From positions 704,001 to 768,000 of the forward strand of contig OY970323.1 of the NCBI GenBank assembly GCA_963716985.1: 64,000 nt of DNA, written 5' to 3'. The position numbers were made by a program, and so were the translations under genes. The DNA is from an uncultured bacterium (GTDB lineage Bacteria; Chlamydiota; Chlamydiia; Chlamydiales; SM23-39). This document shows, in pieces, positions 35,794-54,744 of this stretch (the first letter of the stretch is position 1; each line of letters starts with the position of its first letter). The notes beneath the pieces were generated by a model, which saw only the letters and a list, made by a program, of their open reading frames with translations, did no database searches and was not told the DNA's origin.

Positions 35794-35858
35794 AAAAAAC
35801 CGAAGAATTTTCTTTGGCTGTTCATTATTGGAGGTGGAGCGATGCGGTTAGAGTTTTC
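35794..35858. repeat. att-like repeat 0 (terminator + ssrA 3' end + foreign arm)
   Basis: AAAAAACCGAAGAA/TTCTTTGG hairpin, then TTGGAGGTGGAGCGATGCGGTTAGAGTTTT. Confidence 0.7.
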
Positions 35859-36013
35859 CTACGGGATTGGCATCCTTAAATTTGTGCAAGGACTTTTTCT
35901 GTTCCCAATTCTTCCTTGAAGAAGCTCTTTTCTCTGACGAATTTTGAAAAATCATTGGCAATTCAAAAAAAATATGCTATCACGTTAAGGTGTAGTTTTT
36001 GGTAGGAGGGCAA

Positions 36014-37126
36014 ATGAGCCGCAAATTTTTAGATAGTTTTTTTATTCTTTTTTTATTGGTTTTTATCAATCAGATTTTCGCCGATGAGGTGAAAATTCCC
36101 AATGAAGCCGAAAAGGCAATCACATTTAATTCCCCGGCGAGAATTGCGGTAAAAGGAGAATGGGACTTCTATCTTTCTGCCCATTTCGTTTACTGGATTG
36201 CAAAAGAAGAAGGGATTTCAGTTGCTTCTGTGAACGATTATAGTAATTTTCCTTTTGTTTTAACAACGTATCCGGTGGATACGTCTTACAAACCTGGATT
36301 TAAAGTAGCTTTTGGCATGAACTGCGGAAACTATGACAATTGGGTAGTAGGAGCAGAATATACACGTTTTCACATAGAGCATCATCAAGCATCCGCCTCC
36401 ATACCTTTAGGACAAATTGCGGCCTTCGATATGGATCCCGCATTTGTCTCATTTGAAACAACCTTGAGTGTAAATGGCAATGCCCTCGGATTTACGCATA
36501 GTGCCGGCAAGTGGAAAAACGAAATGGATTTGATTGATGTGAATTTATGCAGGGCCTTCTATTCGGGGAAAAAACTTACGTTTTCACCCTTTTTAGGTCT
36601 GCGTAGCGGGTGGCTTGATCAACATTTTTATGGTAACTATGTAGCTTATGACATTTCCAGCAGTAATCAGCCCTATCTCATTTCTTCAAAAAGCAAGCAG
36701 CATTCATGGACTCTTGGTCCCAGAGTTGGATTCTTTGGTGATTGGCTTTTAGGTTCGGGTTTTAGGCTTTGCGCAGAAGCGGCGGGTGCTATCCTTTATC
36801 AACATTTTCACAACAGTTTTTTAGATACTTTTTCAACAATCGGCTTTCTCAATACTCCCGGTTCGTATTTTAAGCAGAACAAAAACACTTTAAATCCGAA
36901 TTTAGATTGTGAATTAAGTCTTGGATATGGAACCTATTTTGCAAATAATAAATGGCATTTCGATTTAACGGCTGGTTATAGTTTTCAAATCTTTTTCTAT
37001 CAAAACAGGCTTACGGTTTTATCGGTTGACGAATCCAATGTAAGCGATAACGTTTATTTCGATGCGTATACTCCCGCTAATCTCATACTTCATGGCCTTA
37101 ACGTTGCAATGCGTTTTGATTTCTAA
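36014..37126 (+). CDS. Lpg1974/MOMP-like outer-membrane beta-barrel porin
   Basis: Signal peptide, YW.AKEEG, YKPGFKV..G, GPRVG, C-terminal NLILHGLNVAMRFDF. Confidence 0.85.
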   Translation: MSRKFLDSFFILFLLVFINQIFADEVKIPNEAEKAITFNSPARIAVKGEWDFYLSAHFVYWIAKEEGISVASVNDYSNFPFVLTTYPVDTSYKPGFKVAFGMNCGNYDNWVVGAEYTRFHIEHHQASASIPLGQIAAFDMDPAFVSFETTLSVNGNALGFTHSAGKWKNEMDLIDVNLCRAFYSGKKLTFSPFLGLRSGWLDQHFYGNYVAYDISSSNQPYLISSKSKQHSWTLGPRVGFFGDWLLGSGFRLCAEAAGAILYQHFHNSFLDTFSTIGFLNTPGSYFKQNKNTLNPNLDCELSLGYGTYFANNKWHFDLTAGYSFQIFFYQNRLTVLSVDESNVSDNVYFDAYTPANLILHGLNVAMRFDF

Positions 37127-37134
37127 TCATTACC

Positions 37135-37154
37135 AGCATTATCAACATAATGCT
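37135..37154 (+). terminator. Hairpin after porin gene
   Basis: AGCATTAT-CAAC-ATAATGCT. Confidence 0.5.
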
Positions 37155-37166
37155 AGCAAGTTTTCG

Positions 37167-37225
37167 TGCGCCCGGCATGAAATCTTTCTGGGAGGTGAGG
37201 GTCTTCTATAGGCTTAGCGTGTCCT
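37167..37225 (+). other. Group II intron 5'-end remnant
   Basis: GTGCGCCCGGCATG...GGAGGTGAGGGTCTTC, just downstream of a hairpin. Confidence 0.6.
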
Positions 37226-53814: not shown

Positions 53815-53980
53815 CATCTAAAATTAAAGCTCGTTAGGCCATCTGCAGCCCTTGGGGCTGCTCACTACCATATCCAGGCAAGTCCAAGTGGCTTGGTAAA
53901 AAAAGTTGTTAGGAGTTCCTTGGCAGCCCATAGGGCTGCTCACAACTATCAAGCCCCTCGCTTTGCGAGGGCGTCATGAC

Positions 53981-54328
53981 TGCCGTTTTTAGGTTCAACG
54001 TGATCGCGTAGGATGTGTTCGATGAGATTTTTATAAACCCATTGGAGGTACCATGGAAGATTAATTAAGCTGCTTTCATCGAATGCAAAATAGTCTTCTT
54101 CTCCGCAAAAGCTATCAATTGACACTGGGATTGGTGGACGGTTGGTTTTTTTATCAAACCTAGTGCTCTGTCATAGTTAAAATTTAGGATTATAAGTTTG
54201 GCAACGGTCGGCATAAACTCAAGTCAATTTATCCTAAAATTAAAGAATGGCAGAGCACTAGCAGTTTGTTTTTCATTGATTCCAAAGTTTCTAATGTGAA
54301 ATTGCGGAACGTAGTGTCCATATGCCAT
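53981..54328 (-). pseudogene. DUF4238-like gene, MITE-interrupted and truncated at IS200
   Basis: MAYGHYVPQFHIRNF...QTA|RFDKKTN...FCGEEDYF after removing the MITE. Confidence 0.7.
54160..54261. mobile_element. 94-bp CTAG MITE, copy 3 (reverse orientation)
   Basis: Reverse complement of 3143-3244; CTAG on both sides. Confidence 0.92.
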
Positions 54329-54346
54329 TACTATTTTTCCTTCTAT

Positions 54347-54371
54347 AAAAAAGGCCGGGAGATTTCCCAGC
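54347..54371 (-). terminator. ssrA terminator
   Basis: GCTGGGAAATCTCCCGGC followed by T-tract on minus strand. Confidence 0.75.
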
Positions 54372-54381
54372 TCTGTAATTT

Positions 54382-54744
54382 TGGAGGTGGAGAGAATCGA
54401 ACTCTCGTCCTCAGTAAACTCCATATTCATGACTACATGCTTAGCATCTTAGGGTAGATCGACTTTGCTGCAAGACGCAAGCACTTCAAGTCGAGCCTTC
54501 TTTCTTTGTCTCGAAGGGCTCCTAAAAGAAGAAGAGAAAAACCTTCATGCCAGGGTCGTGACGGTAGATCCCAAGACTCCTGGTCAGGTCTATGGGCTAC
54601 CGAGCGCATAAAACTGTTAGGTCTTACGCAGCCAATGCCAATTTAGGTTCGGCAATTAATGTTTTATCGGATTTTTAAGAGGCCAACCGACGTCCTCTGC
54701 ATGCCACGGATACTTTATTTCCGAGTCGAAACCGTTACACCCCC
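54382..54744 (-). ncRNA. ssrA: tmRNA; tag reading frame AEPKLALAA*
   Basis: 5' GGGGGTGTAACGGTTTCGAC; 3' GACGAGAGTTCGATTCTCTCCACCTCCA; acceptor stem GGGGGUG/CACCUCC. Confidence 0.96.

Follow-up and report, generated by a model that had tools for sequence, protein, structure and literature searches.

The question raised by this locus is how five gene segments, separated by copies of the 3' end of the tmRNA gene ssrA, came to be lined up directly downstream of that gene with no recombinase gene among them. The window, i.e. the whole stretch of DNA analysed, comprises 64,000 nt from an uncultured member of the Chlamydiales (contig OY970323.1, positions 704,001-768,000; GCA_963716985.1); positions are those of the window unless marked as genome coordinates, which are given separately. 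An initial annotation, made from the letters alone, had read the locus as an undescribed, integron-like array generated by the repeated use of one recombination system. The array is real, and it was built by an already known way of collecting genes, here without its enzyme. The 18.5 kb region is probably a fossil tandem array of five small islands. The last 14 bases of ssrA would have served as their insertion site, and a single family of large serine recombinases (LSRs), widespread in environmental chlamydiae, would have inserted them.

The integration target, ssrA, is located at 54379-54744 on the minus strand (ARAGORN; Rfam RF00023, 153.6 bits) and encodes the tag AEPKLALAA. Downstream of it, the array is split into five low-GC segments by five repeats in the same orientation, each composed of a terminator hairpin, the last 14 bases of ssrA (the core) and an arm of ~21 bases, with internal deletions in two of the copies. 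The GC content is 0.36-0.42 over the interval of 35-50 kb, compared to 0.45-0.48 in the flanks. The conserved chromosomal flank beyond the array is marked by a PhoH/PIN gene (33388-34695, plus strand; Pfam, tblastx). Read on the plus strand, as the reverse complement of the 3' end of the tmRNA, the core is TGGAGGTGGAGAGA. Allowing for two mismatches at most, it was found at four positions of the window (35829, 44051, 44791 and, in the gene itself, 54382), on one strand throughout, as against 0.47 matches expected by chance and a count that was reached in none of 100 shuffles. A corresponding scan with the arm GCATTCAGAACTTT (up to two mismatches) yielded five matches versus 1.22 expected in the window, three of them at the repeats (44066, 46845 and 47131) and two at unrelated sites (39588 and 46337, minus strand). 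Two further arm copies, at 44805 (GCATTGCAGAACTTT, with a 1-base insertion) and 35843 (GCGGTTAGAGTTTT, diverged), were found by reading the sequence. On the plus strand, each core is preceded by an A/T run and a GC-rich hairpin, which in the direction of ssrA lie after the core. After the cores at 44051 and 44791 comes (GA)TGCATTCAGAACTTT or a close variant of it, and after that at 35829 the diverged arm copy; at 46821 and 47121, deletion has removed most of the hairpin and the core. The five same-orientation repeats listed in the initial annotation, including the two deleted copies, were thereby confirmed.

All junctions are oriented on the minus strand. At the ssrA-proximal junction (54345-54395; class ssrA/hairpin), which forms the left end of the newest segment, the 14-base core (54382-54395, the last bases of ssrA) is followed by a hairpin terminator (54345-54381). 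The internal junctions, R5 to R1 with increasing distance from ssrA, were delimited by sequence reading in combination with the arm scan (R5 and R4), the repeat family D11 (R4) or the core scan (R3, R2 and R1). R5 (47121-47151) has retained an intact arm (GCATTCAGAACTTTTGACTGG) and lost nearly all of its core and hairpin. In R4 (46821-46865), the arm is intact, the core is cut to GGGAGA and half of the hairpin is left; its flank (TTGAACACAGTGGCATTTAAAAGAAAAAGGCCGAG) shows 83% identity to that of R2. R3 (44751-44826) comprises the hairpin, a core with one mismatch (TGGAGGCGGAGAGA) and an arm with a 1-base insertion. R2 (44018-44086) carries the hairpin, a core with two mismatches and an arm with one mismatch, and its hairpin-side flank (AATGTCATTAAAAAG) is conserved in other genomes. 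R1 (35794-35862), the outermost and oldest junction, consists of a hairpin that is probably the original ssrA terminator, a core with one mismatch (TGGAGGTGGAGCGA) and the most diverged arm (GATGCGGTTAGAGTTTTC). Damage is present in all five internal junctions. The state of the arm worsens outward from ssrA, with 14 of 14 bases preserved in R5 and R4, one insertion in R3, one mismatch in R2 and four mismatches in R1, the copy that had already been singled out as most diverged. Arm decay that grows with distance fits a newest segment adjoining ssrA, as the initial annotation had proposed; one insertion after another at ssrA would have produced the array and left the oldest segment outermost.

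The IleRS (isoleucyl-tRNA synthetase)-ssrA side of the locus is syntenic in every relative compared, and the downstream side is variable. The PhoH/PIN gene lies 11 kb downstream of ssrA in the relative G012, and multiple ssrA-end copies with the same arm are found in several relatives. In the same-genus genome G001, the contig stops 7.3 kb downstream of ssrA, and no gene is common to it and the window array. Cassette content was found to differ between relatives at the junctions, and an order-wide scan for the repeat, both points that had been raised for follow-up, detected the 28-base junction AAGTTCTGAAYGCNTCTCTCCACCTCCA (up to three mismatches) in 108 of the 301 genomes sampled from the order, distributed over 88 of 171 genera; a reversed-pattern control gave 0 matches in every genome. 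The junction had no match in one family with genomes of 1.0-1.3 Mb.

The recombinase linked to the arm was found in these relatives. Among 300 genomes of the order, 72 have matches to PF07508, and in six of them such a match and an arm junction are placed on one contig, 4-12 kb apart and on opposite strands. Five of the six loci display the full layout, i.e. the tmRNA gene, the core, an LSR open reading frame (ORF) on the opposite strand, cargo, and the arm followed by core and hairpin; the sixth ends at a contig edge. The LSR ORF (domains Resolvase, Recombinase and Zn_ribbon_recom) abuts ssrA and spans the attachment site in five relatives, with the arm+core junction located 2.5-12.6 kb beyond it. 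Several families within the order are represented among the five LSRs, which nevertheless share 70-80% identity with the first one. In the LSR elements, the sequence following the core (ATTGGTTGGAY...) is the 3' end of the LSR gene. The core joined to this 3' end (TCTCTCCACCTCCAAYTNNTTGGAYNNNC, up to two mismatches) was detected in 39 of 301 genomes, and cross-reading of the two scans placed PF07508 within 1 kb of the motif in 10 genomes. The genes neighbouring the LSR were of two types, a primase-helicase with CHC2 zinc finger, Toprim and AAA_25 domains (L064:8182-9921, L065:6146-7951) and a Schlafen/AlbA_2-HATPase_c_4 protein (L063:7477-8985, L067:5801-7660).

On the ssrA strand, the arm reads CCA-N4-AAAGTTCTGAAYGC, and the shared core reads TCTCTCCACCTCCA. 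The LSR frame contains no stop codon before the core, and the integrated form ends in ...NWRWRESNSRP, coded by antisense tmRNA. When the antisense strand is read from the core into the arm, WRWR-D-x-FRTF-x-W or near variants are obtained at 36 of 36 junctions from 19 sources; junctions of a second type, which involve tRNA-Tyr and are described below, are in frame too (WGRLD-x-FRTF-x-W). At 41 junctions, substitutions in six conserved codons numbered 16, 21 and 34 at codon positions 1, 2 and 3, respectively, a pattern that suggests coding constraint on the arm. Judged by these reading frames, the arm is the element-side att half-site and also encodes the last codons of the recombinase. What the initial annotation called a non-tmRNA arm is, in other words, an att half-site that belongs to the element and serves as coding sequence as well. 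Its coding role explains the sharp border at CCA (a Trp codon) and the variable N3-4 spacer noted earlier, although the length of this spacer proved to be constant and the variation to lie in a codon, GAN or CAN, before TGG. By their composition, the internal repeats are attR-type hybrids, each made up of an element half-site (the arm), the core and the left end of the next, older element. The view that the repeats are recombination scars left by the repeated action of one site-specific system at ssrA was borne out. The crossover must fall inside the 14-base core, because the left-hand sequences of ssrA and arm differ right up to the core and those on the right from the first base after it.

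Junctions were classed in 20 stretches, comprising 18 loci of relatives, the window and a locus at 1.74 Mb of the same genome. At 34 arm junctions, the next feature was a hairpin in 24 cases, an LSR 3' end in 3 and another sequence in 7; at 19 genuine ssrA ends, the corresponding numbers were 12, 6 and 1. The four window junctions that were classed (ssrA-proximal, R3, R2 and, by eye, R1) are all of the hairpin type, with the core followed directly by the hairpin in each and an LSR stump in none of the four. Most units therefore lack an LSR and start with their own terminator directly after the core. A motif behind the hairpin, TTTTGTTTTTAGTGACAT or CTTTTTAATGACAT, is common to many units across genera with differing cargo, and left-end modules consisting of the hairpin and TTTTTARTGACAT are likewise shared by several genera, again with different cargo. 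In the genomes G215 and G159, arm junctions are followed by short LSR 3' ends, and the LSR of G198 is devoid of the N-terminal catalytic part.

In the genome containing the window, PF07508 gave 0 matches. Using five LSRs of relatives as tblastn queries (E<=10), no LSR remnant was detected in the window, nor was the motif of core plus LSR 3' end found in this genome by the order-wide scan. No PF00589 integrase is encoded in the window, the nearest one lying 36 kb past its end; the whole genome has 11 PF00589 matches, some of which adjoin tRNA-Met copies. These Pfam and tblastn searches agree with the earlier description of the array as free of a recombinase. The only trace of an LSR in the genome is a 39-residue stump at genome position 665309-665425 (tblastn E 2e-6), beside a tRNA-Tyr-type junction at 665297. 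The sole gene with a Resolvase domain (PF00239; genome 1916843-1917457) was considered as the enzyme acting on the att sites and rejected, since it was read as IS607-type. It belongs to an IS607-like element (genome 1916800-1919050) directly downstream of tRNA-Lys, in which a second, long ORF accompanies the 205-aa serine recombinase between palindromic ends of the ATGCAAATTTGCAT type.

In the relatives, the autonomous form runs from ssrA and the core through an oppositely oriented LSR gene and 2-10 kb of cargo to the arm and another core. The following mechanism is proposed. In the excised circle, the LSR frame would run from the core into the arm, so that the circle-form enzyme would end in the FRTF-x-W tail; the same tail would be expected when an LSR element stands behind another element in tandem. 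Each incoming element would bring a new copy of the core, which would keep the ssrA-side junction usable as a target, and islands would consequently stack with the newest next to ssrA. The five segments of the window would represent an LSR-less class with a left end formed by the core and their own terminator hairpin and a right end formed by the arm. Most likely, an LSR acting in trans from an autonomous element integrated them, singly or together with a neighbour, which would make them cis- or trans-mobilizable cassettes. The LSR that inserted them would either never have resided in these units or have since departed, and the oldest segment would have come to lie outermost. Because the genome is without an LSR and every window junction is damaged, the array is presumably now immobile and decaying.

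Contigs from four soil/sediment metagenome runs cover parts of the array with 99-100% identity; array bins without metagenome coverage are uninformative. The sequencing runs found to carry this DNA included no RNA data set. In run X3, one contig connects the core end at ssrA (position 54395) with the start of the R5 arm (position 47131), with one extra C. The depth at this joint is similar to that of the run's other contigs, and the complete hairpin-core-arm junction is absent from the assembly. The joint is ambiguous. It could stem from a sister strain in which R5 is intact, from a tandem duplicate of segment A (the one adjoining ssrA) or from the junction of a segment A circle.

Several observations weigh against insertion of LSR-less units by an LSR in trans. 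The recombination steps are all deduced from sequence, and the scheme does not account for how cassettes without an LSR, in which the terminator immediately follows the core, first arose. PF07508 was found in only 37 of 108 arm-bearing genomes (cross-tabulation), and the enrichment is modest, with arm junctions in 37 of 72 genomes with PF07508 versus 71 of 228 without; the relatives are mostly metagenome bins, in which an LSR may have been missed, as may plasmids carrying one. The third-position excess in the arm codons is modest and is carried mostly by two codons. The hairpin class was defined by a simple heuristic devised for this analysis, and R4 and R5 fall outside the junction classes. 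Finally, loss of an LSR by deletion does occur, as seen from the stump at 665309-665425 and the LSR 3' ends in G215 and G159. All five segments could, accordingly, have arrived as full LSR islands that then lost the recombinase and the left end, with no trans mobilization at all, a history that the initial annotation had named as the case against its own proposal. The LSR stump by the tRNA-Tyr sister junction, the short 3' ends at the arm junctions of the two relatives, the truncated LSR of G198, the deletions in R4 and R5, and a segment A full of introns, an insertion sequence (IS) and small repeats are all compatible with such decay. However, the window contains no LSR remnant, and its readable junctions all lead from the core into a terminator hairpin, as do 24 of the 34 arm junctions in the 20 stretches. 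Deletions that repeatedly stopped exactly at the core and yet spared the terminator are improbable, and left ends with the hairpin and TTTTTARTGACAT recur in several genera with differing cargo. Decay from complete islands is the weaker account because it leaves the clean core-hairpin left ends unexplained; it can be seen at tRNA-Tyr in this genome, but for the window segments it is unlikely.

It is conceivable, if doubtful, that the hairpin-type units constitute a dedicated class of non-autonomous cassettes, inserted and removed across chlamydial families by a roaming family of serine recombinases, with an integron-like mode of working and a retargeting from ssrA to tRNA-Tyr. Such a class would be defined by a conserved left end of ~60 bases (core, own ssrA terminator and TTTTTARTGACAT) and a right end of 21 bases, and the recombinase tail, which would switch on integration from a circle form (...WRWRD-x-FRTF-x-W) to a chromosomal form (...WRWRESNSRP), could decide in which direction the reaction runs. 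Tyrosine integrases often use ssrA as a target (also reference 24 as cited in PMC3146451), and integration by a tyrosine recombinase, either a lost integrase of the type acting on tRNA or tmRNA genes or the host XerC/XerD (as in integrative mobile elements exploiting Xer, IMEX), would be in keeping with the 11 PF00589 matches in this genome. Other types of ssrA junctions in relatives, which keep more of the T-loop (ccccgttcgat followed by the core), may belong to such integrases. However, none of the loci examined showed a PF00589 gene in linkage with an arm junction. Of ten arm-bearing relatives checked, six possess just two tyrosine recombinases, both XerC/D-sized, and the arm is directly linked to LSR elements. 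A scan with a dif consensus produced weak matches scattered genome-wide, none at the junctions and none arm-like. Given the lack of PF00589 in the window and the relatives with XerC/D only, this very improbable reading was dropped as unsupported. It is likewise very improbable that the repeats work as RNA or regulatory modules, such as tRNA-like 3' ends or terminators duplicated along with operons, and are not scars. Each copy does contain a terminator-like hairpin, and other structured units derived from the tmRNA end trail ssrA in relatives, but the arm offers no 5' partner for an acceptor stem, genes are found on both strands of the segments, LSR elements have the junction at their far end, and deletions and mismatches are present in the window copies. 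No Rfam family matched the repeats or the ~174-base units trailing ssrA in relatives.

The trailing units are arranged in tandem and measure 174-216 bases (L024:15212-16090 in G016, with at least five copies; L027:1776-1951 in G007). They run from GGAGGTGAGCAAGGC to GCGAGGGCT, followed by the ssrA core and hairpin, and their 5' end pairs with the core in the manner of an acceptor stem; for one unit, the folding energy is -78 kcal/mol (z -3.0). Analogous units, with the tRNA-Tyr-matched 5' end GGGGGCGAGCAAGCC, follow tRNA-Tyr at 654500-657800 of the window's own genome (L073:1500-4800).

The arm also occurs elsewhere in this genome. It is joined to a perfect ssrA core at genome positions 1740543 and 1742991, and a third ssrA-end copy is located at 1738753. 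These copies belong to a second ssrA-type array (genome 1738753-1742991; L072:5753-9991), far from ssrA. This array starts with a 21-base ssrA-end copy bearing a different arm (ccccagtgttcgat), carries a DUF4238 gene, an NYN gene and an IS with a STAND ATPase fragment in units bounded by the two perfect arm+core junctions, and ends at a gene for a TLC ATP/ADP transporter. According to the GC skew, the origin is near 0.1 Mb and the terminus near 1.18-1.2 Mb, which places the two ssrA-type arrays 440 and 550 kb from the terminus. A large inversion as the origin of the array at 1.7387-1.7430 Mb is poorly supported, the symmetry being only rough, and both flanks of the window array (IleRS and PhoH) are ancestral.

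In addition, the arm is fused to a second core, GTCCAACCGCCCCCA, at genome positions 665297, 667311 and 669472 and, in a diverged form, at 1939636 and 1943830. In this second core, the 3' end of tRNA-Tyr (gene at genome position 654418-654500) takes the place of the ssrA end. The tRNA-Tyr locus (genome 654418-669500; L073) features a displaced 3' half-copy of tRNA-Tyr behind the gene (657575-657657) and at least three junction types, with three junctions carrying the LSR arm; its diverged sister array extends over 1939600-1943850 (L074). The cassettes of the sister arrays encode DUF4238, NYN, a Gp49/HTH pair, Fic/DOC, a Schlafen/AlbA_2 ATPase, hydrolases and IS elements. The Schlafen/AlbA_2-HATPase_c_4 protein of the tRNA-Tyr array (L073:8542-9900) is of the type also seen next to the LSRs of relatives.

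The cargo of the window array is mostly related to toxin-antitoxin (TA) and defence functions (AbiE, a HipA-like kinase module, RhuM and a nucleotidyltransferase-like pair), supplemented with an accessory Hsp70 set and a porin, and its genes lie on both strands. Segment A (47152-54344, 7.2 kb, mixed strands; Pfam, PADLOC, Rfam and genome-wide copies) adjoins ssrA. It contains the N-terminus of RhuM (47212-47469, plus strand; PADLOC RhuM-type PDC-S05, 4e-22). Two copies of a 124-base dispersed repeat (47395-47518 and 47721-47844), inverted with respect to each other and enclosing ~200 bases, interrupt the gene at 47395; this repeat has at least 12 copies in the genome. Directly after the RhuM repeats lies a 5'-truncated group II intron (reverse transcriptase (RT)/maturase 47833-48507, domain V-VI 48513-48584; Pfam, Rfam). 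It is followed by AbiEi (48819-49466; PADLOC 4e-57), AbiEii (49463-50335; PADLOC 4e-106) and an ORF without assigned family on the minus strand (50511-51269). A full group II intron of 1918 bases (51461-53378, RT 51850-53289; Rfam, Pfam) has three other copies in the genome with at least 99.8% identity, one of them in the window at 25777-27694. The remnant of an IS200-type Y1 transposase (53437-53814; Pfam) comes next. The block of 2541 bases at 51320-53860, in which a complete group II intron adjoins or interrupts an IS200-type element, recurs with 99.96% identity at genome position 1969990-1972529. The segment further contains a 102-base dispersed repeat (54160-54261), 84 bases downstream of the ssrA terminator, with ~30 copies in the genome, others of which adjoin tRNA-Tyr junctions at genome positions 658211 and 665416. 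The contents given for the segments in the initial annotation were recovered by Pfam and PADLOC as listed, save for the DUF4238-like label of 50511-51269, a region without a Pfam match to DUF4238 at E<=0.01; the two group II introns, the IS200-type remnant and the two small dispersed-repeat families of segment A had gone unmentioned.

Segment B (46866-47120) is a 255-base remnant without a credible gene (ORF list, Pfam). Segment C (44827-46820, minus strand; Pfam, PADLOC PDC-M03A/B) carries a HipA-like module of three genes, encoding a 67-aa protein (44908-45111), a HipA N-terminal domain with HTH (45108-45749) and a HipA_C kinase (45737-46678). The module is split, with a 213-aa HipA-N+HTH protein, a separate 313-aa HipA_C kinase and the 67-aa ORF downstream of both, an arrangement that we take to resemble three-part HipBST systems. 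Segment D (44087-44750, minus strand) contains a Cdd1 gene (PF11731, 44109-44411; Pfam 5e-24). Segment E (35861-44017, 8.2 kb, mixed strands; Pfam) comprises a Legionella-type porin (35999-37126), ORFs without a family match at 37289-37720 (143 aa), 37777-38076 (99 aa) and 37980-39893 (637 aa), a protein of 96 aa consisting only of a J-domain (39890-40180), GrpE (40116-40736), Hsp70 (40733-42433, 566 aa) and DUF3471 (42436-42810), as well as a nucleotidyltransferase-like gene (43001-43558; weak DUF2204) with a 111-aa partner (43555-43890), both on the minus strand. The region 37289-42810 represents an accessory chaperone operon borne by an island, in which an Hsp70 set is combined with a large partner of no known family. 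The left 0.5 kb of segment E shows ~90% DNA identity to the ssrA-side cassette of G023, a member of another genus; the hairpin between the conserved flanks differs, and the IleRS proteins of the two genomes are only ~68% identical. This match suggests that such a unit, in whole or in part, has recently moved horizontally.

The architecture of the locus is not new, contrary to the earlier suggestion of an undescribed system, and the closest likeness is found in the ssrA-specific genomic islands (ssrA-GIs) of Dehalococcoides (McMurdie et al. 2011; PMC3146451). There, the islands are described as arranged in tandem downstream of ssrA with direct repeats of the ssrA 3' end between them, and the serine recombinase DsiB (~500-540 residues) is located at attL on the reverse strand, with a frame that overlaps the att site and ssrA. 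Some of the tandem islands lack an integration module and are read there as cis-mobilizable elements moved by accretion, and the recombinase is suggested to be complete perhaps only on the circle (PMC3146451). The window corresponds to this picture in having islands directly downstream of ssrA, bounded by direct repeats of the ssrA 3' end and the two deleted copies, in a tandem arrangement of five segments between six junctions. A serine recombinase at attL on the reverse strand is absent from the window and its genome and present in relatives sharing the junction. Common to both groups are the tandem islands, the position of the LSR, its frame across the att site and the occurrence of islands without a module. 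DsiB is described as CcrB-like (PMC3146451), and the best NCBIfam match of the chlamydial LSR is CcrB (6e-23), far below the model cut-off. The chlamydial islands can be likened to the DsiB islands by architecture, the enzymes being compared by description only.

Differences from the Dehalococcoides islands include the host phylum. The chlamydial repeat consists of 14 ssrA bases and a conserved arm of 21 bases, compared to a 20-base ssrA repeat, and the chlamydial LSRs are accompanied by Schlafen/AlbA_2-HATPase_c_4 or primase-helicase genes rather than the DsiA/ParB/Mom-type module given in PMC3146451. The tail across the site is conserved in chlamydiae (FRTF-x-W), whereas the overlapping part of the frame is called divergent in that paper. 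The chlamydial arm is also found on the tRNA-Tyr 3' end, and the window's genome is without the recombinase. The chlamydial system is set apart by the conserved tail-coding arm, the conserved hairpin-type left ends, the two targets, the wide spread across an order and the other LSR neighbours. In the literature collection searched, no paper describes ssrA or serine-recombinase islands of chlamydiae.

A further parallel is provided by cis-mobilizable elements (CIMEs; the term as used in PMC3146451) and by site-specific accretion at the attachment sites of ICEs and IMEs in Streptococcus, in that att-bounded units without recombination genes are stacked in tandem with autonomous relatives. The window segments are indeed flanked by att sites of an autonomous element family and contain no recombinase. 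Classic cases of CIMEs involve tyrosine integrases and conjugative partners. The chlamydial units differ in being tied to a serine recombinase, with no transfer machinery seen, and their mobilization by a neighbour is putative. With integrons, the array shares the ordered accumulation of small, mostly one-operon cassettes at one site, the newest by the anchor, and a cargo of defence and TA genes. However, IntI (PF00589, window), attI and a common promoter are lacking and genes lie on both strands; the repeats are, by direct reading and with no attC model search made, tmRNA 3' end plus arm plus terminator and not attC palindromes. The comparison of the array to an integron was therefore not upheld, since it has no IntI, attI or attC.

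Environmental chlamydiae are intracellular and are usually thought to exchange few genes. A single family of attachment sites in about a third of the sampled genomes represents a concrete route by which TA and defence genes may be acquired, and the arm together with the tmRNA end provides a simple marker for acquired DNA. The LSR family has a defined natural target, two target variants (ssrA and tRNA-Tyr) and a frame that is rewritten by integration, which opens a putative C-terminal switch of directionality to testing. For the genome analysed here, the array is a relic of this process.

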